A stretch of 64,000 nt of DNA from Actinomycetota bacterium (GCA_003164955.1 PLRW01000247.1:81403-145402), one strand, 5' to 3'. Shown: positions 5,857 through 28,186, counted from the first letter of the stretch. Notes: generated from the sequence alone by a model not told the origin. Program-made: numbers and translations.

Positions 5857-5884
5857 CGTTCATGCTTAGCACGGCGGCTATGCG

Positions 5885-6116: not shown

Positions 6117-6166
6117 GACCCGAATGATTTCAGGTATGACCCGAATGATTTCAGGTATGACCCGAA
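6117..6166. repeat. 21-bp tandem repeat, about 2.4 copies, in an AT-richer non-coding stretch
   Basis: GACCCGAATGATTTCAGGTAT at 6117-6137 and 6138-6158, then GACCCGAA. Confidence 0.9.
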
Positions 6167-6920: not shown

Positions 6921-6932
6921 TATTACGTAATA
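6921..6932. promoter_or_regulatory. perfect 12-bp palindrome TATTACGTAATA upstream of the pelF-like operon
   Basis: Seen directly. The core ATTACGTAAT recurs at 22509-22518 upstream of the agd3-like gene. AGATATTACG also occurs at 6658-6667. Confidence 0.35.
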
Positions 6933-7047
6933 CGCATCACATTGGGCGGGGGCCGGGAGAAATGACGCGCGACTGGGGATACGACCATGCCCCGCGAACG
7001 TTCCGGAGCGGGCAACGTGTCCCCCGCAGGCGCAGTGAGCGGGCGGC

Positions 7048-10028: not shown

Positions 10029-10170
10029 GCCGTCTACCGGGGGCAACCGGATGGGGTAAGGGGGCTGCTTCCGGGGGGCCGGATTCCTAGGGCACTGGCA
10101 GCGGGCACTCCGCCGCCAGACGTATCAAGCCATCTTTGAATCTTCAAGTTCAACAGGAGGGGAGGCTGCG

Positions 10171-11166: not shown

Positions 11167-11179
11167 GCGCGGAGGCATC

Positions 11180-11893
11180 ATGCATGCAGTAATTCTCGCC
11201 GGGGGTAAGGGCATCAGGCTGCGGCCCTATACGACGCGGCTCCCCAAACCTCTCGTGCCCATCGGAGACGACCACTCGATCCTGGAGATCGCGCTCTCCC
11301 AGCTCGCCCGGTACGGCTTCGACCGGGTCACGCTGGCCATCGGCCACTTCGGCGAGCTGATCCGGTCCTACATCGGTGACGGCAGCCGGTGGGGCCTCAG
11401 CGTCGACTACACCGACCTGGAGGAGACGCCGCTGGGCACGATGGGACCGGTCCTGCAGATCCTCGACCGGCTGCCCGAGCAGTTCCTGGTCATGAACGGC
11501 GACATACTGACCGATCTTGACTTCTCGGACCTGATGCGGCGGCACGCGGCATCGGACGCGCCGCTCACGGTGGCGACGTACCAGCGCGAGGTACGCATCG
11601 AATACGGCGTGCTGACCACCAAAGACGATCACGTGGTGAAGTTCACCGAGAAGCCGACGATCGACTACCGGGTCAGCATGGGCGTTTATGCGTGCAACCG
11701 GCGAGCCCTGGCCAAGTACACACCCGGGCTGCCGTTCGGCTTCGACGAGTTCGTCCTGGACATGCTGGCCGGTGACACTCCCCCGCAGGAGTACGCGTTC
11801 AAGGGCTACTGGTTCGATATCGGCCGCCCGGAGGACTACGACCGGGTCAATGCCGAATTCGGGCTCCTCCGGGAAAGCCTGCTGGGGGCCTAG
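11180..11893 (+). CDS. sugar-1-phosphate nucleotidyltransferase
   Basis: MHAVILAGGKGIRLRPYTTRLPKPLVPI signature. Start chosen at the internal ATG 11180, which has GGAGG 5 nt upstream. The track ORF starts at 11084 and overlaps the previous gene. Confidence 0.85.
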   Translation: MHAVILAGGKGIRLRPYTTRLPKPLVPIGDDHSILEIALSQLARYGFDRVTLAIGHFGELIRSYIGDGSRWGLSVDYTDLEETPLGTMGPVLQILDRLPEQFLVMNGDILTDLDFSDLMRRHAASDAPLTVATYQREVRIEYGVLTTKDDHVVKFTEKPTIDYRVSMGVYACNRRALAKYTPGLPFGFDEFVLDMLAGDTPPQEYAFKGYWFDIGRPEDYDRVNAEFGLLRESLLGA

Positions 11894-11896
11894 GCG

Positions 11897-12799
11897 ATGC
11901 GTCTCATGGTTATCGGTGCGAGCGGGTTCCTCGGTGCGCACGTGCGGCGCCAGGCCTCGGCGGCCGGGGCGGAGGTGGTGACGGCCGGCCGCTCCAGGCT
12001 GGCCGATTCACCCCGCCACCGGTTCATCGACCTCGCCGAAGAGGATCCAGCCCAGCTCGCGGCGGTGATCACGGAGGTGGCTCCGGACGCCGTGGTGAAC
12101 TGCGCCGGAGCGACCTCCGGGCCGCCGGAGGCGCTGGCTGCGGCCAACGTCACCGGCGCCTACACGCTGACGAAGGCCATGCTCCTGACCCGGCGGCGGC
12201 CGCGGCTCGTGCATCTGGGATCCGCCGCCGAGTACGGGCGCGCCGAGCCCGGGGTCCCGGTGACCGAGCAGGTCACTCCCCGGCCCGGCGCGATCTACGG
12301 CGTCACCAAGCTAGCCGGTACCCGGCTGGTGGAGCTGGCCGCGGCGGCCGGGCTCGACGCCGTGGTGCTGCGGGTCTTCAACCCCGTAGGCCCGGGAGCA
12401 CAGCAGGCCAGCCTGCCGGGCCGGCTGATCGCCGAGCTGCGCCAGGCGTCCTGGCAGGGAACCGACGTGCGGCTCGGGTCGCTGGACGCCGTCCGCGACT
12501 TCGTCGACGTGCGGGATGTCGCCGACGCCGCGTTCGCCGCCGCGGCCGCGGCGGCGCTCCCGCACACTGTGCTCAACATCGGCAGCGGGCGGGGAGTGCC
12601 CGTCCGTGCGATGGTCAAGCAGCTTCTCGCGATCAGCGGATGCACGAGCACGGTGCACGAGGATACGCAGGGGCCGGCGCGATCACCCGACATCCCCTGG
12701 CAGCAAGCCGACATCAGCCGCGCCGTCGCCGACCTGGCCTGGACGCCGCGCCGTGACCTGGAGACTTCGCTGACCGACCTGTGGGAGGCGACCCCGTGA
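11897..12799 (+). CDS. NAD(P)-dependent nucleotide-sugar epimerase/reductase (SDR)
   Basis: 300 aa. MVIGASGFLGAHV Rossmann motif and YGVTKLAG YxxxK. Confidence 0.8.
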   Translation: MRLMVIGASGFLGAHVRRQASAAGAEVVTAGRSRLADSPRHRFIDLAEEDPAQLAAVITEVAPDAVVNCAGATSGPPEALAAANVTGAYTLTKAMLLTRRRPRLVHLGSAAEYGRAEPGVPVTEQVTPRPGAIYGVTKLAGTRLVELAAAAGLDAVVLRVFNPVGPGAQQASLPGRLIAELRQASWQGTDVRLGSLDAVRDFVDVRDVADAAFAAAAAAALPHTVLNIGSGRGVPVRAMVKQLLAISGCTSTVHEDTQGPARSPDIPWQQADISRAVADLAWTPRRDLETSLTDLWEATP

Positions 12800-13497
12800 C
12801 CCCGCGCGCCGCGGACGGCTCCGAGCTGGTCAGGCCGCAGTTGATCGTCCCGGCGTATTTTCACCCGGCGACCCATCCGGGCGAGTGGGCGTGGCTGGCC
12901 GCCCGCGCCGCACAGATCAGGATGATCGTGCTCAACCTGGCCGACGGGCCGGGCGCCCAGCCCGACGCCGCCCTGTTCCCGGTGCTGGACCGGCTGCGTT
13001 CCGCCGGGGTGACGGTGGCCGGGTACGTGGACACCGACTACGGCCACCGCCCGGTGTACGACGCCGTGGCCGATCTCACCCGGTTCGCGGGGTGGTACCA
13101 GGTCGACGGCGTGTTCTTCGACCGGGCCGCCGTGGCCGCCGGGGATGTCGGCTATTACGCGGACCTGGCCCGCCAGGCGCGGGATACGGGCGTGCGCCTG
13201 GTGGCGTTCAACCACGGTTCCCACCCGATCGAGGCGTACGCCGAGCACGCCGACCTGCTCGGCACGTTCGAGGGCCCCTGGACCGCTTACCTGGAGCTGA
13301 CGGTGCCGCGCTGGGTGCGGGCGCGGCCAGCCGGGCAGTTTTTTCACCTGCTGCACTCGGTGCCGGTCTCGTCGTTCGAGGACGCCACCTGGCTGGCGGC
13401 CCGGCGCAACGCCGGCTGTGCGTTCGTGACCGACCAGGGCGGGGAGAATCCCTGGGACCGGCTGCCGGACGGCGCTTTCGACCGGCAGCCACAGTAA
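12781..13497 (+). CDS. spherulation-specific family 4 (Sph3/GH135-like) protein, no signal peptide
   Basis: 238 aa. LIVPAYFHP...WAWL...MIVLNLADGPG...GYVDTDYGHRP...WYQVDGVFFDRAA. An alternative GTG start at 12796 gives a GTGA overlap with the upstream stop. Confidence 0.8.
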   Translation: MGGDPVTPRAADGSELVRPQLIVPAYFHPATHPGEWAWLAARAAQIRMIVLNLADGPGAQPDAALFPVLDRLRSAGVTVAGYVDTDYGHRPVYDAVADLTRFAGWYQVDGVFFDRAAVAAGDVGYYADLARQARDTGVRLVAFNHGSHPIEAYAEHADLLGTFEGPWTAYLELTVPRWVRARPAGQFFHLLHSVPVSSFEDATWLAARRNAGCAFVTDQGGENPWDRLPDGAFDRQPQ

Positions 13498-13600
13498 GCC
13501 CCGGCCTGCTGGCCGCGCATCGAGCAGCCCGCTGCCCAGCGTAGTCTTGCCATGACCAATGGCCTGACGTGCGCATACTTGATGTGAGGCTCGCCTGAGC

Positions 13601-14515
13601 ATGCACGGGAAACCGAACAGGCAGGCTCCCGGCGGACTCCCGGCTCTCACCCCCCGGCGGCTTGCCGTCGTCCTGTCCGCCGTCCTGGCCGTCGCGGCCG
13701 GTGCCGTCGCGGTATACGTGGCCACCGGGTCCCGGTCGGGCTGCCAGGAAGCGTTCGTGCCCGCCTACTTCTACCCGGGCGCCGGCTGGACGCAGGCGAT
13801 TACCAGCAAACCACCGCCCAGCGTCATGATTCTCGACGTCACCAGTTCGGGCGCGGGCAGTTCACCGAACCGGAATTACCAGGCCGCCGTCAAGCGCGCG
13901 CAGGGCGCCGGGATCACGGTCATGGGTTACGCCAGCACGGACTACGCGCGGCGTCCCGCCGCGGCGGTCGAGGCGGATGTCTCGCATTACCGGTCCTGGT
14001 ACCACGTGACCGACGTCTTCCTCGACGAGGCATCCAGCAACGGCGGCGCGGCCGCCTATTACCAGCGCCTGACCAGCTACATCCACGACGTAGACCCGGG
14101 CTCGAAGGTGATGCTGAACCCCGGCACCTATCCCGACCAGCGGTACATGTCGATCGGCGACATCGTTCTGGTGTACGAGAATACCTACGCCCGTTACGTC
14201 AAGCTCCGCGTGCCCGGCTGGGTCCGCAATTATCCCGCGGCCAAATTCGCGTATGCCATTTACGCCACCCCGGGCTCGGAGCTGGCCGGCGCGATCAGCC
14301 TGTCCCGGCAGCGGAACGCCGGCTACATCTACGTGACCAGCAATTCCGGTGCGAACCCGTACAGGTCACTGCCCGCCTACTGGCCGGGCGAGAATGCGAT
14401 CATCGCCGGATGCGCGCGCGCCAGCACGTCGTCCGCCGGCGCCCCGGGCCCAGCCGGAACCGGAGCGGGTCAATCTACCGGCAAGGATGGCGCGGCCCGG
14501 CGAGAGCCGACGTGA
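13601..14515 (+). CDS. spherulation-specific family 4 (Sph3/GH135-like) protein with N-terminal membrane anchor
   Basis: 304 aa. TM segment LAVVLSAVLAVAAGAVAVYVA, then FVPAYFYPGAGW...MILDVTSSGAGS...GYASTDYARRP...WYHVTDVFLDEAS. Confidence 0.8.
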   Translation: MHGKPNRQAPGGLPALTPRRLAVVLSAVLAVAAGAVAVYVATGSRSGCQEAFVPAYFYPGAGWTQAITSKPPPSVMILDVTSSGAGSSPNRNYQAAVKRAQGAGITVMGYASTDYARRPAAAVEADVSHYRSWYHVTDVFLDEASSNGGAAAYYQRLTSYIHDVDPGSKVMLNPGTYPDQRYMSIGDIVLVYENTYARYVKLRVPGWVRNYPAAKFAYAIYATPGSELAGAISLSRQRNAGYIYVTSNSGANPYRSLPAYWPGENAIIAGCARASTSSAGAPGPAGTGAGQSTGKDGAARREPT

Positions 14516-15551
14516 ACAGCGTCCCGTCAATGCGGCCCGAGGTGTCGGCCGGGCAGAAATGGCCGAGGTCCGCGGCGGCGTCGCGGCCCCAGTCATCGGT
14601 GTACTCCGCGTCCAGAACGAGCTTTCCGGCCCGGACGTACGGCGGCGTCACGATCCCGCACGTCTGGTAGTAGCCGCATTCCTCGGTCAGCAGGAAGTCG
14701 GTGGTGGGCTCGAGCGCCGCCGAGAACGCCGGGTCGTTATCCCCGTTCTTCTGCCCCCACGCCAGGCCGAGGTGGTGGGCGTAGGCGGCGAGGGTGCGGT
14801 CATACGCCTCGCTGCGCGCCTCGGTGATCGGGAAACCGGTGCTGTCGGTGTACGAATCGTCGATATCCGGCTCGACCGCGTCGAAATCCTTGCCCGCGCA
14901 TTGCTGCCGGATCATCGACTCGATGATCGCCGTCGTGGACGCCGCCGTGATGTTGAGGTATTTCTCCGGGTACCCCGGCACCGCGCGGCCCAGATCACCG
15001 GCGGCCTGCAGCTGGTCGTAGTAGGTGACCGCGCCGCCCTCGTCGGCGGCCGAATAGTAGTTCCCGGCCGAGCCGACCTCGATGTAACAGATCACTTTGC
15101 TCCCTCGCCGGTGCAGCGCGGCCACCACGGAAGCGGAGCTGAGGATGCCGTCGATGTCGTACAGGCCCACCCGGGGCGCCAGCCGACCGGCCGCGTTCAG
15201 CACCCCGTTGCCCATATCCAGTTCGCTGCCGGTGCTCAGTGGGTGGTCTAGTTCCCACTGGAATTCCGGCCCATTGTCCGGGCCGGCGTCCGAGGGATGC
15301 CACCAGGCGTGCGCCGTGGGCCCGTGCCCGGCGGGAGAGGTCGCGGGCCTGGTGGCGTGCCCCCCCGGCGGCGGCGGCGCCGTGGGGGCCGCCGTGGCCG
15401 CTGTCGCGGCTGCCGTTGCTCCTGCCGCCGCCGCGGCCGGGGTGGCATGGGCCGTGGCCGGGGCCGCCGACGGCGTCGGCCGGGAGGCCCCGCTGCCGCA
15501 TCCAGCCAGCAGCAGGCCCATCCCGGCCATGACGATCGCGGTCTTCCTCAT
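14475..15551 (-). CDS. GH114 endo-alpha-1,4-polygalactosaminidase-like lipoprotein (Ega3 / PelA-hydrolase-domain type)
   Basis: 358 aa. Lipobox LLLAGC. FQWELDHPL..., GLYDIDG..., KVICYIEVGSAG..., DAVEPDIDDSY... fit the Glyco_hydro_114 pattern as I remember it. Confidence 0.8.
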   Translation of the reverse strand: MRKTAIVMAGMGLLLAGCGSGASRPTPSAAPATAHATPAAAAAGATAAATAATAAPTAPPPPGGHATRPATSPAGHGPTAHAWWHPSDAGPDNGPEFQWELDHPLSTGSELDMGNGVLNAAGRLAPRVGLYDIDGILSSASVVAALHRRGSKVICYIEVGSAGNYYSAADEGGAVTYYDQLQAAGDLGRAVPGYPEKYLNITAASTTAIIESMIRQQCAGKDFDAVEPDIDDSYTDSTGFPITEARSEAYDRTLAAYAHHLGLAWGQKNGDNDPAFSAALEPTTDFLLTEECGYYQTCGIVTPPYVRAGKLVLDAEYTDDWGRDAAADLGHFCPADTSGRIDGTLFTSALAGPRHPCR

Positions 15552-15648
15552 GAACGTCGCGTCCCCGCCCGCGTGTGGAGAGCCGGCCAGCCCGGCCGTG
15601 GCCCTGCGATGATACGCGGGGCCACTCCCGCCGTCCCGCCGCGGGCCG

Positions 15649-16197
15649 CTACCCCTGTGGCTCGCTGACCTGCACCGGCGCGGGCGGGTTGGCCGCCGCG
15701 GTCACCTCGGTGATGTCGCCGTTGCCCGTGGCGAGCAGGGCGCCGGCCGGGCCGGGGTTCCCGCTGCTGATCTGCGTGCCGGCCTTCCCGACGTCATTCA
15801 GGCCGGCCCGGTAGATCGCCGCATCCACCGGGGGCATGGGGCCGCCGAGTGCGGTCCGCACGTCCGCCGCCAGCTGGGCGCCGGCACTCTTCGCCGCGCC
15901 GGACTGGCGGGCCCGCTGGGCGGCGCTGAGCTTGCCCAGGTCGACGTTGACGGCCGCGAGAAGCTGGCCGGCCGGCCCGGTGACCCATTTGGCCCCCTTG
16001 GTCACGGCGGGCAGCGCCGCGGCGGACGGCCGGCTCGCGGTCTTCCCCCCGCCGACGCCGGCCACGACGCCGGCCACCAGGGCGGCGAGCAGGACCGGGA
16101 TCAGCGTGGCCAGAACCTTGTTCCGGCGCACCCACGACCCGCCGGGCCACTGTCGCGTTCCGGGCCCGGTGGCCCATTGTTCCATCGACGTTGTCAC
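15649..16197 (-). CDS. hypothetical single-pass membrane-anchored protein
   Basis: 182 aa. One TM (VLATLIPVLLAALVAGVVAGV) and an Ala/Gly-rich ectodomain. Lies between the agd3-like and GH114 genes on the same strand. Confidence 0.5.
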   Translation of the reverse strand: MTTSMEQWATGPGTRQWPGGSWVRRNKVLATLIPVLLAALVAGVVAGVGGGKTASRPSAAALPAVTKGAKWVTGPAGQLLAAVNVDLGKLSAAQRARQSGAAKSAGAQLAADVRTALGGPMPPVDAAIYRAGLNDVGKAGTQISSGNPGPAGALLATGNGDITEVTAAANPPAPVQVSEPQG

Positions 16198-16287
16198 GAT
16201 CGTTTCCCCTTTTTTCTTCTGGCTGGCCGCCCAATGGGGTCCCGGCGCATTCGCCGGGACCCCACCGGGCCTCGTGAACTGGCTTGG

Positions 16288-19200
16288 TTAGCTGACCGTC
16301 AGGGTGAAGGTCTGCGTGGCCGAGCCGATCGAGTTCTTGGCCGTGATCGTGAGAACGTAGGTGCCGGCCTTGGTCGGAATCCCGATCAGGGTGGCCGTCC
16401 CGTTGACGAGGTTGAGGTAGACCAGCCCCGGCACGCTGCCGGTGTGCGTGACGCTCGCCGCGGGGTAACCGACGCTGGTGAACGTGAAGGCATAGAGCTT
16501 CCCGTGTGCCACCGTCGCCGTCGCGGCGCTGGTGATCGCCGGAGCCTGGTCCACCGTCAGCGTGAAGGCCTGGCTGGCCGTCCCGCCGCTGTTGGTCGCC
16601 GTGATCGTGAACTTGTAGACGCCGCCCTGGTCGACTCCGGGCGTCCCGGCCAGGGTGGCCGTGCCGTTGCCGTTGTCAGTCCAGGTCACGCCCTGCGGCA
16701 GCGAGCCCGCTTCGGCCAGGGCCGGGGCGGGTGCCCCGGTCGTATTGACCGTGAAGGAGAAGCCGGAGCCGTCGGTGGCCGTGGCGGTGGCCGCCGAGGT
16801 GATCGCCGGGGCGCCGGTGACGGTCAGGACGAACGACTGGGTGGTCGTTCCGCCCGTGTTCGCCGCGGTGAACGTGACCGGGTAGGTCCCGGCACTGGCC
16901 GCTGTCGGTGTCCCGGTCAGCGTGGCCGTCCCCTTGCCGCTGTTGGTGAAGGTGACACCGGCCGGCAAGGCCCCACTGTGGGTCACGTTGGTGGTGTAAC
17001 TGGTCGGGCTGCCCACCGTGGTGACCGTGAAGGAGAACGCCTTGCCCGTCGCCGCGGTCGCCGCCGCCGCGCTGGTGAACGTCGGCACCTTGACCGTGCC
17101 GGCCGCCTTGACGGTCAGGGTGATCGTCTGGCTGGCGGTGCCGCCGCTGTTGGTGGCGGTGACCGGCACGGAGTAGGTACCGGCCGTGATCGCGGTCGTG
17201 CCGGACAGCGATCCGGTCCCGTTGCCGTTGTCGGAGAAGCTCACCCCGCCCGGCAGGGTGCCGGCCTTGAGTGCCGCCGCCGGGTAGCCGGTCGTGGCCA
17301 CGGTGAAGGTGAACGCCGTGCCCGCCGTCTCGGTGACGGCCGCGGCGCTGCTGAAGGCCGGCGCGTTGGTGACCGTCAGGGTGAACGCCTGGCTGGCGGT
17401 ACCCGTGGCGTTCTTGGCCGTGATGGTCAGCGGGTAAGCGCCCTTGGCGGCCGCCGTCGGCGTACCGGCCAGGGTAGCTGTCCCGTTGGTGTTGGCGGTG
17501 AAGGTGATGCCCGGCGGCAGCGTCCCGACGTGGGTCAGGGCCGGCGCCGGGGTGCCCGTGGTGGTCATCGTGAAGCTGAACGCCGTCCCCGAGGTCGCCG
17601 TGGCCGTGGCCGCGCTGGTGATGGCCAGCCCGCTGTTGACGGTCAGGACGAAGGCCTGGGTGGCCGTCCCCGTCGCGTTCTTGGCCGTGAGGGTCACTCG
17701 GTAGGTACCCTGGCTGCCCGCTGGCGGCGTGCCGGCCAGGGTGGCCGTGCCGTTGCCGTTGTCCTTGAACGTGACCCCGGACGGCAGAGCCGGGCTGCTG
17801 GTGGCGGACAGCGCCGCCACCGGGATCCCCGTGGTCGTCACCGAGAACGTCCCCGCCGAGCCGGCCGCGAAGGTCGCCGCGCCGGCACTGGTGATCGTCG
17901 GGGCCACCGGCGCCGGGTTCACGGTGATCGTGAAGTTCTGCGTCGCGTTGGAGCCGACCCCGTTGGCCGCCGTGATCGTGATCGGGTAACTGCCCTTGCT
18001 GCCCGCCGCCGGGGTGCCGGCCAGGGTGGCCGTCCCGTTGGTGTTGTCGATCAGCGTGACGCCGGACGGCAGCGTACCGGACTCGGTGATCGCCGCAGTC
18101 GGGCTGCCGGTGGTGGTCACCGGGAACGTGCCCTGCGTGCCCTCGGTGAAGGTCGCCGAGCCGCCGCTGGTGATCGCCGGCGCCGTGGGGGCCGCGTTCA
18201 CGGTCAGCGTGAAGCTCTGCGTCGCGTTGGGGCTCCCCCCGTTCGCCGCCGTGATCGTGATCGGGTAACTGCCCTTGCTGCCCGTCGCCGGGGTGCCGGC
18301 CAGGGTGGCCGTCCCGTCGCCGTTATCGGTCAGCGTGACGCCGGACGGCAGCGTGCCGGACTCGGTGATGACGGCCGTGGGGCTGCCGGTGGTGGTCACC
18401 GTGGACGTGCCGGGCGTGCCCTCGGTGAAGGTCGCCGAGGCCGCGCTGGTGATCGCCGGGGCTTGCGCGACCGTGATGGTCAGGGTCTGCGACGCCGTGC
18501 CGTAGCCGTTGACCGCGCTCAGCGGGATGGCGTAAGTGCCCGGGGTGGTCGGCGTGCCGGAGAGCGTCGCCGTTCCGTCCTTGTTGTCGGTGAAGCTCAC
18601 GCCCGCCGGCAGGTTGGAATCACTCCAGCTGGGCGCGGGATAGCCACCCGCCGTGGCGGTGAAGGAGAACGCCGATCCGGCCGTGGCCGTCGCGGTGCTG
18701 GCGCTGGTGAAGGCCGGCGCGTCACCGACCACGACCGTGTAGGTCTGGGTCGCGTCCGGGCTTATCCCGTTGCTGGCCGTGATGGTCAGGGTGGCCGTAC
18801 CGGTGGCGGTGGCGGTGCCCGAGAGCAGGGCGGTGCCGGTGCCGTTGTCGGTGAAGGTCAGCCCGGCGGGCAGCGTGCCCGTCTCTGTGATCTTCGCCGT
18901 CGGTGATCCCGTCGCGGTGATCGCGGCGGCCCCCGCCGAATTCAGCGTGAAGTTGGCGGTCGACCCGCTGGTGATGGTGGGCGCGGTCGCGGTGTTCACC
19001 GTGATGGTGAGCGCCAGTGTCGCGGTACTGGCCGAGGAGTTGGTGGCCGAGATGGTCACCGGGTAGGTGCCCGCCGTCCCGGCGGTGCCGGCGATGGTGG
19101 CGGTGCCGTCCTTGTTGTCCGTGAACGTCAGCCCGCTGGGCAGCGTCCCGGATTCAGTGATGGTCGCCGCCGGGGACCCGGTGGTGGTGACGGTGTACGT

Positions 19201-22173
19201 CCCCGCCACTCCGGTGCTGAAGGAGGCTGTGCTCGGGCTGGTGATGCTCGGAGCCTCGCTGTTGGTCAAGGTGAAGCTCTGGCTCACGCCGCCGACGCTG
19301 TTGGCCGCCGTGATCGTGATCGGGAAGCTGCCGCCGCTGGCCGCCGCGGCCGTGCCGGCGATCGTGGCGGTGCCGTTGCCGTTGTCGGTGAACGTGATGC
19401 CCGCGGGCAGCGCACCGGTCTCGGTCAGCGCCGGAGCCGGGGCGCCGGTCGTGGTGACCGTGAAGCTGAACGGGGAGCCCGCGATCGAAGACGCGGACGC
19501 AGCGCTGGTGATGGTGGGCAGAACGTTCTCGGTGAGGGTCTCGGTGGACCCGGTGCCGAGGTTGACCCAGTCCGACAGCTCACCGCCGTAGGCCTGGCCG
19601 AACGCCGCGTTGTTGACGGTCGTGCCGGTCGGCACGGTCACCGGGACGTTGACGCCGGAGCCGCCGTTGGTGACGGTGACCACGCCGTTGGTCTCGGTCG
19701 CGCTGACCTTCCCGGCGGTGCTGGCCGTGGTCCAGGCGGCTTGCTTGGCCAGGACCTGCGCCTCGGTGGCATCGGTCATCTGGGTGATCGGGGCCGTGCT
19801 GGTGTACCAGCTGTTGTACTGGCTCAGCATGTTGTCGATCAGGCGCAGGATGGTGTAGCCCTCGTCCTGGCCGCTCGCGTCGGTGGCCGGGCCGATCAGG
19901 TTGGTCTGGTGGGCGTAGCCGACCCGGGGATCGTTGTCGAGCACGTGGCTCAGCATGATGTGCGACTCGGAGGCCAGCAGGTCAGCCTCGGTGGCCGGCG
20001 TGGTGCGGCAGGTGGTCGCCGAGGTGTCCGTGCAGTGGCCGGTCTCACTCGGGAATTGCGTGCTGCCGAGCGAGTCGCCCTGCGCCACGTAGAGCGAGTT
20101 GTACTCGTTCAGCTCGTCGGTGAAGTTGTCGGCGTTGTAGTAGATGTTGCTGGGGTACCGGGGCGCCCCGAGAGCGGCCCCGAGCGAGTACTGCTGGGGC
20201 TGGCGGGAGGCGTCCTGGGCGAAGGTGGTGACACCCACCCCGGCCAGGGCGGCCGGCATGTTCGGGTTCTCGATCCCGGAGTGCTCGCCGGTGACGACCA
20301 CGGCCGGGCTGTAGTTGGTGAGCTTGTTCGCCTGGGCGAAGGCCTGGTCCAGCCCGATCTCCTGCTCGATGGAGGAGTCGGCGGTGGTGCTGGTGGCGGG
20401 CAGCCAGCTACCGGCGGCGCTGGAGCAGTCGATGCCGGGGTTGGTGGCGGTGGGGAAGCCCGGGCCCGAGTTGGGCGCCGCACCCGCTGTGACCCCGTTG
20501 TCGGTGAAGCTGTAGGTGGTCGAGGCCGTCGCCGCCGTGTTCTCTGCTACCTGGCCGACCAGCCCGTAGGTGGTCGAGCCGGGGTCCTCGCGGTACACGT
20601 TGTAACCCCAGAAGCCGGTGCCGCCGGTGTGGCTGGCCTCTTCCTGAGCCAGGGTGGGTCCTGCGGTGCCGTCGGTGCCGGTGCCGTTCGTGGCCTCGGG
20701 CCAGGTCAGCGTGACCGACCCATTGGCCCCGACGGTGGCCGCCTGCGGTACCGAGGGCTCCGACTCCCCGTATGCGGTGGCCGCGGTCACCTCGTAGTTG
20801 TAACCACCCGCGGCAAAAGTCCCGCCCGACGAGTTGGCCACCACCGAGGTGACGGCCTGGGGCTGCCACACGGTACAGCCGAGGAACAGGTGCGACCAGG
20901 TATGGGTCATCCAGTTGAAGCTGCCCTGGTTGGCGAGGAGGGCGTTGACGAACGCCGTGTCGTTGGGGGCGCTGGGGTCCGCGACCACGCCGGGATCGGT
21001 GTACGTGGCCCCGTTCTCGGTGACGCTACCGGTGCAGTTGGCGTTCGACGCGGTGGTGCAGGCGCCGACCGCGTTGAAGGCGAGGTTCAGCGTGATTCCG
21101 GTCTGCTTCTCCCACGCGACCACGTAGGCCACGTCGGTCGCGCTCATCTGGACGTCGGCGGGCACGCCGGTCGCCGATCCCGGGGTCACGCCCTGGTCCG
21201 CGACCGGGCAGTTGTAGTCGGGCGGCTCGGTCGCCGCGGGCGTGCACTGGAACTGCGAGCTCCACTCGTTGTCGGCGATGAAGAGGTCGTCGATGTCCTG
21301 GCCGAAGTAGTTGCGGTACAAGCCCAGGTGGGTGTCGTTGGTGACCCAGTTGATGAGCCCGGGGGCCAGCAGCAGCCACTGTTCCTGGGTGGCGTTGTAG
21401 TCAAAGTTCAGCGCCAGCTCCGAGACCCCCGCCTGGGGATCCGTGCTCGGGTGCTGATACACGCCCGCCATGGTGTCACCGGCCGAGTTGTTCAGGAACG
21501 ACGTGTACGGAGCCCCGGCGGTGACCGTGCCCGTGTAGCCGTAGCTGCCGGTGTCGAACGGGATCGGGCCCTTGAGCTCGGGGAAGGCGGCCAGGCCGGC
21601 GCTGGTCAGCGTGCCGGTGGTGCCGTCCAGGGGCCCGCCGGTCAGGTCGGTCACGCCCAGGGCGGGGGCGGGGTACATGTAGCCGTCCACCTGGCGCACG
21701 CCGAAGGTGGACTCGTAGGTGTCCAGCGCGCTCAGCTGGCCCGCGGCGAAGCCGTCGGGCGAGTCGGCGATGACGGCGCCGTTGTAGTTGCCCGTGGTGC
21801 CGCTGGACAGCGCGGGCAGCGTGACGGTCTCGCTCCCGTAGGCCCCGGTGGCCGTGACCTCGTCGTAGGCGACGCCCTCGCTCTTCAGGGCCGCCTCCCA
21901 GGCCGCCGTGGTGACGTCGGCCGATCCGCTGCCGATCAGCAAGATCTTCAGGTTCAGCGTCGGCGAAGTGGCCGCCGCGGCCACAGCGGCGATGGAGGCG
22001 GTCACCCCCGTCGCCGCCAGCCCGGACGCAGTCAGAACCGTCACCAGGAACGCGGCCAGCCATGCTGCCGCCCTGCTCCTATATCTGCTCAACGAACTTC
22101 CCCCCACGAAATCCGGGGAAATGCCCCCGGCCGCAGCACAGCCCCGAAGGCAGTGCAGTACTAAAAAGTGCAT
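16288..22173 (-). CDS. giant secreted protein: Agd3/CE18-like polysaccharide deacetylase module (with FN3-like insert) + 12 Ig-like (He_PIG-type) repeats
   Basis: 1961 aa. Signal/anchor segment AAWLAAFLVTVLTASGLAATG; the start may be GTG at 22107. Metal-deacetylase-like motifs GQDIDDLF (D293-D296) and MTHTWSHL (H424, H428). From residue ~886, 12 repeats of 86-93 aa with consensus APAITSA..A.F..G....F.V.TTG.P.....E.G.LP.GVTFTDNGNGTATLAGTP....G.Y..TITA.N..G.A.Q.FTLTV. No LPXTG motif. Confidence 0.8.
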   Translation of the reverse strand: MHFLVLHCLRGCAAAGGISPDFVGGSSLSRYRSRAAAWLAAFLVTVLTASGLAATGVTASIAAVAAAATSPTLNLKILLIGSGSADVTTAAWEAALKSEGVAYDEVTATGAYGSETVTLPALSSGTTGNYNGAVIADSPDGFAAGQLSALDTYESTFGVRQVDGYMYPAPALGVTDLTGGPLDGTTGTLTSAGLAAFPELKGPIPFDTGSYGYTGTVTAGAPYTSFLNNSAGDTMAGVYQHPSTDPQAGVSELALNFDYNATQEQWLLLAPGLINWVTNDTHLGLYRNYFGQDIDDLFIADNEWSSQFQCTPAATEPPDYNCPVADQGVTPGSATGVPADVQMSATDVAYVVAWEKQTGITLNLAFNAVGACTTASNANCTGSVTENGATYTDPGVVADPSAPNDTAFVNALLANQGSFNWMTHTWSHLFLGCTVWQPQAVTSVVANSSGGTFAAGGYNYEVTAATAYGESEPSVPQAATVGANGSVTLTWPEATNGTGTDGTAGPTLAQEEASHTGGTGFWGYNVYREDPGSTTYGLVGQVAENTAATASTTYSFTDNGVTAGAAPNSGPGFPTATNPGIDCSSAAGSWLPATSTTADSSIEQEIGLDQAFAQANKLTNYSPAVVVTGEHSGIENPNMPAALAGVGVTTFAQDASRQPQQYSLGAALGAPRYPSNIYYNADNFTDELNEYNSLYVAQGDSLGSTQFPSETGHCTDTSATTCRTTPATEADLLASESHIMLSHVLDNDPRVGYAHQTNLIGPATDASGQDEGYTILRLIDNMLSQYNSWYTSTAPITQMTDATEAQVLAKQAAWTTASTAGKVSATETNGVVTVTNGGSGVNVPVTVPTGTTVNNAAFGQAYGGELSDWVNLGTGSTETLTENVLPTITSAASASSIAGSPFSFTVTTTGAPAPALTETGALPAGITFTDNGNGTATIAGTAAAASGGSFPITITAANSVGGVSQSFTLTNSEAPSITSPSTASFSTGVAGTYTVTTTGSPAATITESGTLPSGLTFTDNKDGTATIAGTAGTAGTYPVTISATNSSASTATLALTITVNTATAPTITSGSTANFTLNSAGAAAITATGSPTAKITETGTLPAGLTFTDNGTGTALLSGTATATGTATLTITASNGISPDATQTYTVVVGDAPAFTSASTATATAGSAFSFTATAGGYPAPSWSDSNLPAGVSFTDNKDGTATLSGTPTTPGTYAIPLSAVNGYGTASQTLTITVAQAPAITSAASATFTEGTPGTSTVTTTGSPTAVITESGTLPSGVTLTDNGDGTATLAGTPATGSKGSYPITITAANGGSPNATQSFTLTVNAAPTAPAITSGGSATFTEGTQGTFPVTTTGSPTAAITESGTLPSGVTLIDNTNGTATLAGTPAAGSKGSYPITITAANGVGSNATQNFTITVNPAPVAPTITSAGAATFAAGSAGTFSVTTTGIPVAALSATSSPALPSGVTFKDNGNGTATLAGTPPAGSQGTYRVTLTAKNATGTATQAFVLTVNSGLAITSAATATATSGTAFSFTMTTTGTPAPALTHVGTLPPGITFTANTNGTATLAGTPTAAAKGAYPLTITAKNATGTASQAFTLTVTNAPAFSSAAAVTETAGTAFTFTVATTGYPAAALKAGTLPGGVSFSDNGNGTGSLSGTTAITAGTYSVPVTATNSGGTASQTITLTVKAAGTVKVPTFTSAAAATAATGKAFSFTVTTVGSPTSYTTNVTHSGALPAGVTFTNSGKGTATLTGTPTAASAGTYPVTFTAANTGGTTTQSFVLTVTGAPAITSAATATATDGSGFSFTVNTTGAPAPALAEAGSLPQGVTWTDNGNGTATLAGTPGVDQGGVYKFTITATNSGGTASQAFTLTVDQAPAITSAATATVAHGKLYAFTFTSVGYPAASVTHTGSVPGLVYLNLVNGTATLIGIPTKAGTYVLTITAKNSIGSATQTFTLTVS
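16291..19518. repeat. coding tandem repeat array (12 units of 258-279 nt) inside the giant gene
   Basis: Repeat boundaries counted on the protein (residues 886-1961). Units 5 and 6 (17905-18462) are near-identical. Confidence 0.85.
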
Positions 22174-22489
22174 AGTTTTACTAACGGGCAGATCGCCCGT
22201 ACCTATGGCTTACATCAGAAGAGACGCCTACCCGGTCATGCCGGGTTACGGCGTTAGCCAAGATAGTTTTTCCCATTGATATGCCGACCTGTCTCCACCG
22301 TCCCGGAAAACCCGGCTGCTACGGGAAAAAATTACCGGCCGCCAGCATTAGCCGCTTTCTAATTGTTACCGAGATCACAGCGCCGGCACCGCCCCGCGCC
22401 CGCGGCCCAGGTGGTGGCGGGCGACCCGGAAATCGCGCCGGAATGGGTGGCGGTTTCACGGACGCCGAGCTGGATTCGTGACAACCTGC

Positions 22490-22690
22490 ACGCGATTGAT
22501 TACGTAATGCAACATGACCTGCCGCGCCTCTCGCGGACACTGGGCTGCATCAATGACAATCAGCACACAATCAATTACCTAGCGCAACATGACGCAGCGC
22601 GCCTTTCGCGGACACTGAACTGTATTAATAACAATACGCATGTGATTGATTACCTAATGCAACATGGCCTAACGTGCCCACGGCCCTGTC
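22490..22690. repeat. 75-bp tandem repeat, about 2.7 copies, in low-GC DNA upstream of the giant gene
   Basis: The ATTAC[GC]T core recurs at 22509, 22584 and 22659 (period 75). Each unit has GATTGATTACSTAATGCAACATG and CGCGCCTYTCGCGGACACTG. Confidence 0.9.
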
Positions 22691-22871
22691 GTGCGGACGG
22701 CTGGCGCGGGTAGACCGCCACTGCGGTGTGATCACCGGGCCCGGGCGGCCATCCGGGCACCGCGCCACGAGTACGCCTGCCCGGCACACCCGGGGCCGAT
22801 TCGTTACGTGAAATCGGCACTAACTAGTAACTGTCATGGTATTAGGGGACAGTGCCATCTCCCGCTTTACT

Positions 22872-22912
22872 GGGCGCATAAAAGCCTGCGATCGGGCGCA
22901 TAAAAGCCTGCG
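22872..22912. repeat. 19-bp direct repeat x2 (period 22) just 3' of dprE1
   Basis: GGGCGCATAAAAGCCTGCG at 22872-22890 and 22894-22912. Confidence 0.85.
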
Positions 22913-22938
22913 GTTAAAGGAAAACCCGCCGGCCGCGG

Positions 22939-24300
22939 TCACAGTCCCAGGCGGCGGGACAGATCAGAGGCGAGCCTTCCTTCCGGGTCGAGCCCGGCGC
23001 GGAACTGCCGGAATTCCGGCAGCCGCGGATACATCTGGGCCAGCACATCGGGCGGCACGCGCGAGTCCTTCGCCAGGTAGACACGGCCGCCGGCGTCCAC
23101 GACGAGCCGGTCGAGCCGGTCCAGCAGGCCGGCCAGCGCCGGGGTGCGGGCGGGGAAGTCGAGCGCGAGCGTCCAGCCGGCCAGCGGAAACGACAGCAGA
23201 CCCGGGTCTGCTGCCCCGAAGCGTTTGAGCACGGTCACGAACGACGGCGCCCTCGCCGCGCTGACCAGCTCGAACGAGCGGCGCACGGCGGCCTCCTGGC
23301 CGAACGGGACCACGTACTGGTATTGCCGGAACCCGCCCGGCCCGTAGACGCGGTTCCAGTTCCTGATGCCGTCGAGCGGGTGGAAAAACGTCCCGATGGT
23401 CTGCAGCTCCCCGGTACGGTGCCGCGGCGCCTTGCGGTACCACGCCTCGTTGGCCAGGGCCACCGTGTAGCGGTTGATCAGCCCGGGCGGGAACGGGGAC
23501 GGCACCCCGAGGCGGGCGCCGGGACGGAACGCGAACGGGTCCGCCTTCTCCGCGGCCGGGAGATCGGCCAGCTCGGCGAAGTCGCCGCTGGTGATCACCG
23601 AGCGGCCGAGGCCCGCGCCCCGGGCCATGCTGTCCGACCAGGCCACCGTGTAGCCGTAACTGCGGTCGTGCTCGGTCAGCACGGCCATGGTCTCGTCGAT
23701 GTCAGCGGTGCGTACGGTGTCCACCCGGACCCGGGACGTGGCCACCCGCTTCAGCTGCACCGTGGCCCGCAGGATGAGGCCGGTCAGGCCCATGCCACCC
23801 GCGGTCGCCCAGAACAGGGCAGGATCGCCCTCGCTGGTCACCGTGCGCAGCTCGCCGCCGGGCAGCATCAGGTCGAAGGAACGTACGTGCCTGGCGAAAC
23901 TGCCCGCCACGTGATGGTTCTTGCCGTGCACGTCCGCCGCGATGGCGCCGCCGATGGTGACCTGCCGGGTACCGGGAGACACCGGGACGAACCAGCCGGC
24001 CGGCAGCCCGGCCACCATGAGCTGCTCCAGGCTGACGCCGGCTTCGCAGGTCGCCAGCCCGCTGACCGGATCGAGCTCGGTGATCCGGCTGAGCCGGGCG
24101 GTGGAAACGACCACCCCGCCGCCGCATTGGGCCGCATTGTTGTAGCTGCGGCCCAGGCCCCGCGCGATCAGGCCGCGCGCCGGTCCCGCCGCCTCGAGCA
24201 GCGTTTCCGCATCGCCAGGGCCGGACGGCTCGGCCAGCTCGGCGGAGGATGGCGCGATCCGGCCCCAGCCGGTCAGTGTGACGGTTTGGCCCATGGGCAC
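22939..24300 (-). CDS. dprE1: decaprenylphosphoryl-beta-D-ribose 2'-oxidase (DprE1) orthologue, FAD-dependent
   Basis: 453 aa, collinear with my recollection of M. tuberculosis DprE1: LTGWGR.APS, ARGLGRSY.N.AQ.GGG, PGTRQVT.GGAIA.D.HGKNHH.AGSF, LFWAT.GG.GLTG.I.RAT, YQ..VP, SFP..GW...DFP, LY.AKDSR. Confidence 0.85.
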   Translation of the reverse strand: MPMGQTVTLTGWGRIAPSSAELAEPSGPGDAETLLEAAGPARGLIARGLGRSYNNAAQCGGGVVVSTARLSRITELDPVSGLATCEAGVSLEQLMVAGLPAGWFVPVSPGTRQVTIGGAIAADVHGKNHHVAGSFARHVRSFDLMLPGGELRTVTSEGDPALFWATAGGMGLTGLILRATVQLKRVATSRVRVDTVRTADIDETMAVLTEHDRSYGYTVAWSDSMARGAGLGRSVITSGDFAELADLPAAEKADPFAFRPGARLGVPSPFPPGLINRYTVALANEAWYRKAPRHRTGELQTIGTFFHPLDGIRNWNRVYGPGGFRQYQYVVPFGQEAAVRRSFELVSAARAPSFVTVLKRFGAADPGLLSFPLAGWTLALDFPARTPALAGLLDRLDRLVVDAGGRVYLAKDSRVPPDVLAQMYPRLPEFRQFRAGLDPEGRLASDLSRRLGL

Positions 24301-24414
24301 CGGATACTATCCGTGTCCCGCGCCCCGTCCCGGCTCGCGGGTGGGAAATGACCGCTCAGGCGGGACCGATTTCGTTCGGCAAATCACGTGATGTCCGGAG
24401 CGTAATCTTCCGTC

Positions 24415-24831
24415 GTGATGGCACGCGCGGCGATCGCCCGCACGCGGCCGGTGCCCGCCGGGGCCACGGTGGCGGTGCTCGCCTCGCCGGCCGCGGCCGC
24501 CGGTCTCATCATGCTGCTCACCATCCTCACCACGGCGGCCCTTGGCCTGGGCACCCTGGTCATCGGGCTGGCGCTGGGGTCGGCCGAGCGGGAGCTGACG
24601 CTGGCGCGGCTGACCACCATGGGCCACGAGAAACCCCTCCGGCTCCTCGTCGCCGAGACCCTCCCGGCCGTCCTCGCGGCGGCCGTGGCCGGGCTGGCGT
24701 GCGCGCTGGCGCTGCCGGCCCTGACCGGGCCGGCCCTCGACCTGTCCGTGTTCACCGGGGCCGGCAGCGTGGACGCGATCATCAGGCAGTACGGGTTCGA
24801 CGGCATCGACATCGACCTGACCGGCACCTGA
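24415..24831 (+). pseudogene. chimeric gene remnant: C-terminal FtsX-like ABC permease fragment fused to a GH18 chitinase active-site fragment
   Basis: 138-aa ORF. ...GSAERELTLARLTTMGHEKPLRLLVAETLPAVLAAAVAGLACALALPAL is the last FtsX helices. This runs straight into VDAIIRQYGFDGIDIDL, the GH18 DGxDxDxE region, with the catalytic Glu position lost. Confidence 0.5.
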
Positions 24832-24929
24832 ACGGCGGACTGGCCTCGACGGCCTGCCCTACGCCGGCGTACCTTCATTAGGTTACTGGCGCGTACGGGC
24901 GGGCTCCGCCCGCCCGGGAAGGAGATCCG

Positions 24930-25829
24930 ATGCCCCGACAACGCCGGACCATCAACGGCCGTCCCGTGGTGATCACCGGCGCCGCCTCGGGTATCGGCCG
25001 GGGGCTCGCCCAGCGGCTGTCCCGGTCCGGCTCCCCGGTGGCGATCGCCGACATCGACCAGAACGGCCTGAAAGAGACGGCACGGTCACTGCCGGGACCG
25101 GCGCTGACCCGGGTTCTCGACGTCGCCGACCCTGGGGACGTGCTCCGCTTCGCGGCGGAGGTGCGCGAGTGGCTGACGGCGCCGCTGGCCGCCGTGTTCA
25201 ACAACGCCGGTGTCGCGGTCACGTCCTCCGTGCTCGGCGCCGACCCCAATGACGACGAGTGGCTGCGGCGGATCAACTTCGGCGGGGTGGTCAACGGCAC
25301 CCGCGCCTTCCTGCCGATCCTCACCGAGCAGGACGAGGGCGTCATCGTGAACACGTCCAGCGTCTTCGGCCTGCTGGGCATGCCCTACCAGAGCGCCTAC
25401 TGCGCCTCGAAGTTCGCCGTCCGCGGCTTCACCGAGGCGCTGCGGCAGGAACTGCGCGGGACCGGTGTCTCCGCGGTCACCGTCCACCCGGGCGGTATCC
25501 GCACGAACATCGCCCGCAACGCCCGGATACGCAGTGACCCCGCGGGCCGCGGGCGCAGCCACGACCAGATGGCGGCCGAGTTCGAGGCGATCACCATGAC
25601 CTCCCCCGAGAAGGCGGCGGAGATCATCTGCCGCGGGGTAGAGCGGGGCAAGGCCCGCATCCTCGTCGGGCCCGACGCCTATGCCTTCGACGCCCTGGCC
25701 CGTCTCGCGCCGGTGCACTACTTCGACATCATCGCGCAGGCGGAGAAGCGGCTGCGGTCGCGGCAGGCCGGAGCACCGCAGGAGCGGGCACGGCAGGCAG
25801 CGGCACCGGACGCGGCGGTGCAGCGGTGA
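24930..25829 (+). CDS. SDR family oxidoreductase
   Basis: 299 aa. ITGAASGIGRG, NNAG, YCASKFAV. 4-nt overlap with the monooxygenase gene. Confidence 0.85.
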   Translation: MPRQRRTINGRPVVITGAASGIGRGLAQRLSRSGSPVAIADIDQNGLKETARSLPGPALTRVLDVADPGDVLRFAAEVREWLTAPLAAVFNNAGVAVTSSVLGADPNDDEWLRRINFGGVVNGTRAFLPILTEQDEGVIVNTSSVFGLLGMPYQSAYCASKFAVRGFTEALRQELRGTGVSAVTVHPGGIRTNIARNARIRSDPAGRGRSHDQMAAEFEAITMTSPEKAAEIICRGVERGKARILVGPDAYAFDALARLAPVHYFDIIAQAEKRLRSRQAGAPQERARQAAAPDAAVQR

Positions 25830-27552: not shown

Positions 27553-27867
27553 ATGAGCGAAACGACGATCCGGCTGGACAGTACGGTGCGCGATAAGCTC
27601 CGCGCGCTTGCCGACGAGGACCATGTCACGCTCGGGGATCTGCTCGGCCGACTGGCGGAACGCGAGCAGTACCAGCGTGACATGCGGCGCGCCAACGAAG
27701 TCATGGACCGGATGCAGCGCGAGGATTCTGCGGCGTGGCATGAGTACGTGTCCGAGCTGCACGCATTCGAAGCCGGTACGGCCCGCGACGGGCTGACGGA
27801 GGCGGCAGCCGACTGGCCGGAGTACAACGACGCCGGAAGTGTGACGCGTGCCCTACCAGGCCGGTGA
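27553..27867 (+). CDS. type II antitoxin (RHH/MazE-like)
   Basis: 104 aa. N-terminal TIRLDSTVRDKLRALADEDHVTLGDLL is ribbon-helix-helix-like. Overlaps the toxin gene by 20 nt. Inverted repeat CATACAA/TTGTATG at 27529-27555 spans the start. Confidence 0.7.
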   Translation: MSETTIRLDSTVRDKLRALADEDHVTLGDLLGRLAEREQYQRDMRRANEVMDRMQREDSAAWHEYVSELHAFEAGTARDGLTEAAADWPEYNDAGSVTRALPGR

Positions 27868-28186
27868 CGTGCTGCTGGCCGACCTGGATCCGGTGGCGGG
27901 TCACGAGCAGGGAGGCCGGCGTCCCGTCCTGGTACTGTCCGGGCTCTCCTATAACGATCTGCGCAACGAGCAGCTCATCGTGGCCGCGATTACCAGCCGC
28001 CAGCGCGGGCTGCCCTTCCACATCCCGGTGGGCACCGATTCCGGGCTGCGCGCGCCAAGCTGGGTTCAGCCCGAATCGGTCCGGGCGATCTCGGCGCAGC
28101 GGGTGATCAGGCCGCTAGGCCGGGCCTGCCCGCAGACAGTAGCTGACGTGCGTAACCGGGTCATCAACTTCCTCCGCGACTGGTAA
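27848..28186 (+). CDS. mazF: MazF/PemK family endoribonuclease toxin
   Basis: 112 aa. GDVLLADLDPVAGHEQGGRRPVLVLS...VAAITS...P.HIPV...S.VQPE.VRAIS pattern. Confidence 0.85.
   Translation: MPYQAGDVLLADLDPVAGHEQGGRRPVLVLSGLSYNDLRNEQLIVAAITSRQRGLPFHIPVGTDSGLRAPSWVQPESVRAISAQRVIRPLGRACPQTVADVRNRVINFLRDW

Follow-up and report, generated by a model that had tools for sequence, protein, structure and literature searches.

The window analyzed here, a 64,000-nucleotide stretch of DNA from an Actinomycetota bacterium (GCA_003164955.1, PLRW01000247.1:81403-145402), carries on its minus strand a gene for a large protein in which an Agd3-like head is followed by a long stalk of immunoglobulin (Ig)-like repeats. 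By sequence homology and predicted fold, this stalked protein is a member of the CE18 (Agd3) family, and it is likely to be a secreted, metal-dependent polysaccharide de-N-acetylase that matures the N-acetylgalactosamine (GalNAc)-rich polymer of its own gene cluster, a scheme that two additions, a fibronectin type III (FN3)-like insertion in the catalytic domain and the stalk, would modify. The open reading frame (ORF) occupies window positions 16288..22173 (-) and encodes 1961 amino acids from an upstream ATG (22173); residues are numbered throughout from this ATG. An earlier note on this DNA had placed an Agd3-type deacetylase module with an FN3-like insertion at 19684-21966, which corresponds to residues 70-830 of this ORF.

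Sequence homology and catalytic motifs of the head domain

The head is made up of several parts, all on the minus strand. The CBM87-like N-terminal alpha/beta domain (21334..21969, residues ~69-280) was assigned from a Pfam CBM87_Agd3 match at residues 75-183, from the profile and from a fold match, by which it is a putative carbohydrate-binding module. The CE18 catalytic domain is split in two. Its first part (20878..21333, residues ~281-432), assigned from alignments, profile and conservation, contains catalytic motifs 1 and 2 (CM1 and CM2), and its second part (19714..20388, residues ~596-820), assigned from alignments, profile and a Pfam Agd3_CE match at residues 670-699, contains CM3 and CM4 as well as the motifs TGEHSG (residues 628-633) and DASR (residues 654-657). 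The Agd3-type module ends with a C-terminal beta-rich domain (19519..19713, residues ~821-885), recognized by its strands at residues 758-816 of the structural model and by the profile alignment.

An exhaustive sequence search of 1.84 billion representative proteins retrieved 1087 relatives, many of them 600-900 residues long, 33-45% identical to the stalked protein and aligned to it in two blocks without residues ~434-594. A profile of 40 such insertion-free relatives (33-45% identical; profile A3) matched the crystal sequence of Agd3 (PDB 6NWZ) with an E value of 1.4e-31, spanning the CBM87, CE and C-terminal domains; the CBM87-like part covered Agd3 chain residues 27-264, and the C-terminal part reached chain residue 673. 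The same profile matched the window ORF with an E value of 3.6e-172, in two pieces on either side of the insertion, and it detected no second CE18 gene or paralogue elsewhere in the window. In Pfam, CBM87_Agd3 scored 27.7 bits with the full protein and 31.1 bits with the trimmed one (cut-off, 27.6), and among 26 close relatives CBM87_Agd3 was found in 25, Agd3_CE in 22 and Agd3_C in 3.

In Agd3, D377 is the catalytic base, D378, H510 and H514 are metal ligands, R613 coordinates the base, with Y620 nearby, H668 is the catalytic acid and M666 is essential (PMC7229062); the roles that the earlier note had assigned in Agd3 are correct. Residue numbers in the 6NWZ chain differ by 122 from those of native Agd3, and with this offset the alignment with the A3 profile was residue-exact at D377/D378, H510/H514, R613/Y620 and M666/H668. 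CM1 (GQDIDDLF, residues 291-298, with D293, D295 and D296) aligned D295 (putative base) and D296 (putative metal ligand; codons 21286-21291 (-)) in QDIDDLF with D377/D378 in IDDMFL. CM2 (MTHTWSHL, residues 422-429) aligned H424 and H428 (putative metal ligands; codons 20890-20904 (-)) in HTWSH with H510/H514 in HTFTH, H424 lying 128 residues downstream of D296. Both motifs stood where the earlier note had read them. In CM3 (PRYPSNIYYN), R672 (20158-20160 (-)) and Y679 matched R613 and Y620 in PRWATRIYYN. In CM4 (GYAHQTNL), Y753-A-H755 aligned with M666-x-H668 in YMFHQANL, the His being matched by H755 (putative acid; 19909-19911 (-)) and the Met position being occupied by Y753; a Tyr stood there in nearly all bacterial relatives in the A3 alignment.

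Conservation of these residues was followed in 144 aligned relatives, down to 34% identity. D295, D296, H424, H428, R657, P674, H755 and Q756 were invariant, and R672 was kept in at least 90% of the sequences. The earlier note had proposed that its reading would fall if D295, D296, H424 and H428 were poorly conserved in orthologues, and the invariance of all four leaves that reading standing. Given this invariance, the motif match, as judged from the alignment, is not due to chance.

The predicted fold resembles that of Agd3

An AlphaFold 2 (AF2) model of residues 66-886, which was built on the 144 diverse sequences, reached a predicted local distance difference test (pLDDT) score of 94.2 and a predicted template-modeling (pTM) score of 0.93. 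When the PDB was searched with Foldseek, the best match was Agd3 (6nwz_A; E 4.5e-29), with a template-modeling (TM) score of 0.70 when normalized to Agd3 and of 0.57 when normalized to the query, which includes the insertion, at ~15% identity. The second match was the N-deacetylase domain of human NDST1 (E 4e-13), and classical CE4 deacetylases matched weakly (E ~0.1). A first AF2 model, based on 26 sequences of 60-80% identity, had reached a pLDDT of 57 and a pTM of 0.37 and was replaced by the 144-sequence model; the Foldseek match of that first model to Agd3 (E 6e-8, TM 0.23-0.27) was judged untrustworthy.

The head as modeled thus resembles CE18 Agd3, whose fold joins a CBM87 alpha/beta domain, a distorted (beta/alpha) barrel for the CE domain and a C-terminal beta domain, and the structural comparison gave no ground for abandoning the earlier assignment. 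The A3 profile match to 6NWZ, the predicted fold and the conservation of the motifs together support an Agd3-type module, with the direct Pfam evidence being borderline. By homology, the protein is predicted to have metal-dependent de-N-acetylase activity on a GalNAc polymer.

An FN3-like module is inserted after the His-His motif

The catalytic domain is interrupted after CM2 by an FN3-like beta-sandwich (20389..20877 (-), residues ~433-595, from C433 to just past C583), which was evident in alignment A2, in the split of the A3 profile match and in the model. Its beta-sandwich core spans residues ~443-558. The insertion, of ~150 residues, stands where insertion-free relatives have a Cys loop of ~25 residues with the pattern GC..D....PW.C. 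The earlier note was right about the presence of this element and about its motifs, VTLTWPE from residue 487, GYNVYRED from residue 523 and TYSFTDNG from residue 553; the extent that it gave (residues ~445-565) was too narrow. The AF2 model shows seven strands and one helix, mostly with pLDDT of 84-97. Within the clade that carries it, the insertion is extremely conserved, with the signatures G.Y.YE[VI]TAATAYGESEPS, TGG[TS]GFWGY.[VI]YR and PTATNPGI[DE]C.

The Pfam fn3 family gave weak matches in 4 of 18 insertion-bearing members (best E 0.055), and titin FN3 arrays matched the insertion with an E value of 2.4e-5 only as summed weak segments. The Foldseek neighbor of the insertion was Gp6.1 of phage SPO1, over 150 columns. 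Along the insertion, an F-G-like hairpin (Y.Y.V.A...GES.PS) comes before the B-strand Trp (VTLTWP), which is followed by C (GYNVYRE), C' and E, an order that fits the end of one titin FN3 domain and the start of the next. In view of the weak matches and of a motif order that suggests a permuted or composite topology, we call the insertion FN3-like, not fn3, and we suspect from the sequence that it is a circularly permuted (or composite) FN3-like sandwich. Since the insertion leaves the barrel directly behind the metal-binding strand, its expected place is the catalytic face, where it probably lengthens or gates the groove for the substrate.

With the A5 hidden Markov model, a module homologous to the insertion was also detected in two other Agd3-like proteins, P0175 (residues 406-539, E 1.4e-9) and P0168 (residues 470-580, E 6.6e-7). 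In both, the module follows the TGEHSG loop and not the His-His motif. The FN3-like module therefore decorates two different catalytic-face loops across subclades. Look-alike inserts after GEHSG in P0208 and P0145 were considered as further homologues and rejected, as the A5 model does not detect them.

The head is carried on a stalk of 12 He_PIG repeats

The remainder of the protein, residues 886-1961 (16291..19518 (-), 1076 residues), consists of 12 He_PIG (dystroglycan/cadherin-like Ig) repeats. Pfam He_PIG (PF05345) matched 12 stretches with an E value of 3.3e-75 and 249 bits against a cut-off of 24 bits, and LapB_rpt_80 also matched the repeat region. The units start at residues 886, 975, 1065, 1153, 1239, 1332, 1425, 1517, 1605, 1697, 1789 and 1878; they are 86-93 residues long and have a mean pairwise identity of 54% (range, 40-82%). 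Repeat 12 ends at residue 1961 (...TFTLTVS), with the stop codon next, and neither an LPXTG-like motif nor a C-terminal hydrophobic segment was found in the tail by sequence inspection and hydropathy. The earlier note had likewise described 12 repeats (~1075 residues) running to the stop without LPXTG or another C-terminal anchor. At the DNA level, only repeats 5-7 were detected as a tandem repeat; with the protein repeats diverged and the DNA signal confined to these three, the array is therefore old and not a recent expansion.

Insertion and stalk co-occur in one clade

We compared 450 sequences (449 gathered sequences and the window protein). In 305 of them, the distance from HTxSH to GEHSG allowed a classification, which gave 194 with the insertion and 111 without it. 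He_PIG repeats, between 1 and 14 in number, were carried by 163 of the 194 members of the insertion clade, where repeat numbers peak at 4-5 and at 12 within a range of 0-14; some of the zero-repeat entries may be truncated contigs. Exactly 12 repeats were found in 32 of the 194 members, the window protein included, 11 repeats in 13, and 11-14 repeats in 46. Nearly all insertion-free relatives (107 of 111) had no He_PIG repeats. The insertion and the stalk co-occur and are therefore linked features of one clade. A second homologue search, with the mixed alignment A2, returned mostly close relatives and showed the abundance of forms with 11-12 repeats. The earlier note knew of no described polysaccharide deacetylase on such a stalk, which holds for the literature searched, whereas in sequence databases the stalked architecture is common.

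The clade includes proteins from Kitasatospora, some Streptomyces and Kutzneria, and from metagenome-assembled genomes (MAGs) of Pseudonocardiaceae, Streptosporangiaceae (soil) and Acidimicrobiales. Forms with a short stalk are found in Kitasatospora and in Streptomyces xanthochromogenes. Some of its members have other tails, namely B_lectin, CarboxypepD_reg or DUF1349.

Start codon and secretion signal

The start of the ORF is where the earlier note and the public gene call part. The ATG taken by the note gives 1961 residues, and the public call for P0281, a 100% identical protein from a 111-kb contig of a JGI metagenome, begins at the TTG of codon 28 (window 22092), which gives a gene at 16288..22092 (-) and a protein of 1934 residues. 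The nearest named relative is a Streptosporangiaceae MAG protein of 93% identity.

A Sec-type signal peptide or signal anchor was recognized at residues 28-68 (21970..22092 (-)) by sequence reading and by a hydropathy segment at residues 35-64. In this signal, a basic n-region (RYRSR) precedes a hydrophobic core (AAAWLAAFLVTVLTA) and an Ala-rich c-region, and any position assigned to its cleavage site is presumptive. Neither a lipobox Cys nor a twin-arginine motif was found in the N terminus by sequence reading and hydropathy. LPXTG, lipoprotein and Tat routes were considered for the protein and dropped, there being no corresponding motif.

Two antisense ORFs (909 and 807 codons in length; Arg/Gly/Asp-rich products) span the whole gene at window 16177-22164 (+), and in several antisense pieces over the gene the GC content at third codon positions (GC3) exceeds 0.9. 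Such ORFs commonly arise opposite a Thr/Ala/Gly-rich gene in DNA of 70% GC; they are artefacts and not genes, a judgment made without a homology search.

The gene lies in a GAG/Pel-type exopolysaccharide cluster

The deacetylase gene belongs to a cluster (7048-22092) of two convergent units, one on each strand. The plus-strand unit starts with a PelF-like glycosyltransferase gene (DUF3492 + GT4 by Pfam; 7048-8538), a domain combination that we take to be the PelF architecture. It overlaps, through ATGA, the gene for a multi-spanning membrane protein without a Pfam family (8535-10028), and the two are translationally coupled. The frame of the latter was set by a GC3 frame plot, and the ORFs at 8675-10090 (+) and 6987-10028 (+) were rejected as mis-framed. 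Genes for an NAD-dependent epimerase/dehydratase (10171-11166), an NTP_transferase (11084-11893) and a second epimerase (11897-12799) follow, and then two Spherulin4 (Sph3/GH135-like) genes (12781-13497, Pfam Spherulin4 E 1e-30; 13601-14515, E 5e-40), all on the plus strand. On the minus strand, the deacetylase gene is directly followed downstream by a gene for a small protein of 178 residues with one N-terminal transmembrane helix and no Pfam family (15649..16185), and then by a GH114 gene (Ega3-like endo-alpha-1,4-galactosaminidase family; 14475..15551, Pfam Glyco_hydro_114 E 7e-43). GH114 is the family of Ega3 and GH135/Spherulin4 that of Sph3, both of which are hydrolases of fungal galactosaminogalactan (GAG), Ega3 being reported to be specific for deacetylated GAG (PMC7229062).

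The same gene set flanks P0121, a relative of 1926 residues and 77% identity, on a 1.19-Mb contig (locus L004), where a counterpart of the 178-residue protein, 48% identical, occupies the same position. It also flanks a plain homologue of 707 residues in Streptomyces (locus L005), minus the small transmembrane protein, of which no match was found at that locus. The small protein may be a partner or anchor of the stalked enzyme. The cluster further matches the Actinoplanes operon in Supplementary Data 2 of Bamford and colleagues (PMC7229062). No Pfam match to PelD, PelE or PelG was found among the cluster proteins. Judged by its gene content (an Agd3 homologue, a cytoplasmic GT-B glycosyltransferase, a multi-spanning membrane protein, GH114 and GH135-like genes and epimerases), the cluster is of the GAG/Pel type. 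The earlier note had overlooked it, and it is the strongest functional clue to the stalked enzyme.

Upstream of the deacetylase gene, an 846-nt gap of lower GC content contains three tandem 75-nt direct repeats (window 22454-22678), which are 71-76% identical, share an AT-rich core (ATTGATTACSTAATGCAACATG) and lie 360-590 nt ahead of the deacetylase start. This core does not recur elsewhere in the window, and the P0121 locus lacks it. These repeats may serve as an array of regulator-binding sites. Just past the FAD_binding_4 gene there is also a perfect 19-nt duplicate (GGGCGCATAAAAGCCTGCG; 22872-22912). Rfam searches for riboswitches or known RNAs gave nothing credible in the gap or across 5500-25000, and a scan for promoters and terminators was uninformative at 70% GC.

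Two further groups of genes were noted around the cluster. A few kilobases upstream of it, at 27553-28186 (+), ORFs of 104 and then 112 codons are likely an antitoxin/PemK-type toxin pair, PF02452 (PemK_toxin) being listed for the 112-residue product on the identical public contig. At 574-5856 (-), genes for a PaaX-family regulator, a metallo-beta-lactamase-fold protein, an enoyl-CoA hydratase and a PaaA/PaaC-like protein form a group that looks like phenylacetate-type catabolism, unrelated to the deacetylase.

Proposed mechanism and its alternatives

We propose that the stalked enzyme would act outside the membrane, where it would partly deacetylate a GalNAc-rich polymer exported by the glycosyltransferase and membrane-protein pair of the cluster. 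The deacetylated polymer would be cationic and adhesive, as is fungal GAG after the action of Agd3. By homology, D296, H424 and H428 would hold the metal, D295, positioned by R672, would activate water, and H755 would protonate the leaving amine. As happens to fungal GAG, the polymer would then be trimmed by the GH114 and GH135-like enzymes. The FN3-like module, held in a putative disulfide loop after the His-His motif, may shape substrate engagement. The rigid He_PIG rod, with no covalent anchor, would keep the enzyme in the wall, the hyphal envelope or the matrix and set its reach, being retained either because it binds polymer or wall or by way of the small membrane protein encoded by the neighboring gene. 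The analysis shows homology, the modeled fold, conserved motifs, the gene context and the joint occurrence of the two additions; substrate, activity and the roles of insertion and stalk are proposals. A more specific version is unlikely in our judgment. In it, the FN3-like module and the rod would make a wall- or matrix-tethered enzyme, 12 repeats would serve as a ruler that fixes the site of polymer charging in the hyphal envelope, the small membrane protein would retain the enzyme, and the permuted module would be a transferable element that sets the deacetylation pattern.

Several results weigh against a CE18 deacetylase that matures a polymer of its own cluster. A phmmer search of PDB sequences with residues 1-886 returned chance matches only and missed Agd3, and a profile of the 26 close relatives, searched against the PDB, matched only titin (E 2.1) and missed Agd3 as well. 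The latter failure arises because the insertion-bearing clade is too divergent, and the link to Agd3 emerged only with the insertion-free relatives. Pfam Agd3_CE scored 11.6 bits, at the CM3 stretch only (residues 670-699), against a cut-off of 27.6. As the direct Pfam evidence is borderline and the direct searches fail, CE18 membership rests on transitive homology and fold. M666, essential in Agd3, is replaced by Y753, the usual residue of bacterial relatives. For every member of the insertion clade, activity is a prediction, and so is the GalNAc-rich nature of the cluster polymer. Moreover, some members of the clade lie apart from biosynthetic genes. The gene for P0088 in Kitasatospora is isolated from any exopolysaccharide cluster and adjoins a pectate-lyase-like gene, and on a 2.46-Mb contig (locus L007, 10001-26151) three tandem Agd3-like paralogues of 2129 residues (14 repeats), 2150 residues and 718 residues (plain) have no glycosyltransferase gene within 10 kb. 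The insertion clade as a whole may not necessarily be tied to a self-made polymer.

These isolated members are also what speaks for an enzyme that targets a foreign polymer, such as fungal GAG or the Pel-like matrix of another microbe, or that scavenges, with the stalk and the FN3-like domain binding the foreign surface; soil actinomycetes, moreover, share habitats with GAG-producing Ascomycota (PMC7229062). However, both in the window and at the P0121 locus, the stalked enzyme is the product of the sole CE18 gene of a cluster that has all its other parts, and it fills the place taken by a plain Agd3 homologue of ~700 residues in the Streptomyces and Actinoplanes clusters, so we hold a foreign target to be rather improbable. 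It is very unlikely that the protein serves chiefly as a surface adhesin or matrix scaffold, with the He_PIG rod as its working part and the Agd3-like head as a non-catalytic lectin. Adhesin-type Ig repeats (He_PIG, LapB_rpt_80) do account for over half of the protein, CBM87 belongs to the carbohydrate-binding modules and the direct Agd3_CE score is low, but strict conservation of the Agd3 catalytic and metal residues in 144 relatives is unexpected for a pseudo-enzyme, and the cluster encodes no other deacetylase. Equally slim is the chance that this CE18-fold enzyme acts on another acetylated substrate, be it an N-acetylglucosamine (GlcNAc) polymer, peptidoglycan, a teichoic-type wall glycan or an O-acetyl ester, and that the product is not GalNAc-rich. 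In favor of such a substrate are the position of NDST1, a heparan-sulfate GlcNAc N-deacetylase, as the second-best structural and sequence relative, the identity to Agd3 of only ~15%, and the NTP_transferase and second epimerase, which fall outside the five-gene fungal GAG cluster as PMC11356417 lists it; against it is the presence in the cluster of both GAG-hydrolase families, GH114 and GH135/Spherulin4. All three alternatives are thus disfavored because the catalytic residues are strictly conserved, the gene is the sole deacetylase gene of the cluster and its companions are GH114 and GH135 genes, and a CE18 de-N-acetylase acting on the polymer of its own cluster remains the explanation that we prefer.

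These results show that the Agd3-type enzyme has been remodeled in a large clade of actinobacteria, with an insertion at what should be the catalytic face and an Ig-repeat stalk, often of exactly 12 units. Should the stalk position or retain the enzyme, it would offer a clear example of exopolysaccharide charge being controlled in space in filamentous bacteria, which would matter for pellet formation, for adhesion and for the engineering of biofilms in industrial actinomycetes. Plain and stalked, insertion-bearing enzymes within one cluster type also provide a natural comparison for the effects of auxiliary domains on CE18 activity and deacetylation pattern. No current concept is challenged, since both the family of the catalytic domain and this type of cluster have been described before; for biofilm glycobiology, the architecture is noteworthy and testable, and not very surprising.

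Comparison with known systems

Agd3 of Aspergillus fumigatus (6NWZ), the founder of CE18 and CBM87, has the same three-domain core as the stalked enzyme. The two share four catalytic motifs (D-D, H-x3-H, P-R-[YW]...Y-Y-N and H-Q), a CM1-CM2 spacing of 128-132 residues and a gene cluster with GH114, GH135-family and epimerase genes. The stalked enzyme differs from Agd3 in its low identity (~15%), in the Tyr in place of M666, in the FN3-like insertion of ~150 residues and in the He_PIG tail of 1076 residues. It is also bacterial, has a Sec signal peptide and is encoded with a PelF-like GT4 glycosyltransferase and a separate membrane protein as the predicted synthase, whereas fungal GAG is synthesized by Gtb3.

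A study of 2020 predicted bacterial homologues of Agd3 and argued that their operons make a GAG/Pel-like polymer (PMC7229062). The 35 bacterial homologues in its tree are 618-894 residues long (PMC7229062, Supplementary Data 2). The plain homologues, such as those of Actinoplanes sp. SE50/110 and Streptomyces lavendulae, are 33-45% identical to the stalked enzyme across the core, share its motifs TGEHSG, DASR, PRYP and Y-x-HQ and lie in clusters of the same gene content, but they have the Cys loop of ~25 residues instead of the FN3-like domain and mostly lack He_PIG repeats.

The Pel systems, with PelA of Pseudomonas aeruginosa and PelA-DA of Bacillus cereus, share the same logic, in which a secreted or periplasmic deacetylase renders a GalNAc-rich polymer cationic. 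The deacetylase domain of PelA is CE4-like, not CE18. The N-deacetylase domain of NDST1 (PDB 8CCY and 9F6Z), the second-best relative, matched the profile with an E value of 7.6e-6 around H-x3-H and GEHSG. NDST1 is a bifunctional Golgi enzyme that acts on the GlcNAc of heparosan; it has neither CBM87 nor a stalk and is far more distant from the stalked enzyme than is Agd3.

In the literature searched, we found no biochemical characterization of any bacterial Agd3 homologue and no description of a catalytic-domain insertion or of a 12-unit Ig stalk on an exopolysaccharide deacetylase. Compared with these systems, the stalked enzyme has a catalytic family, motifs and a type of operon that have all been published, and what is new is the architecture, an insertion in the catalytic domain combined with a conserved Ig stalk.

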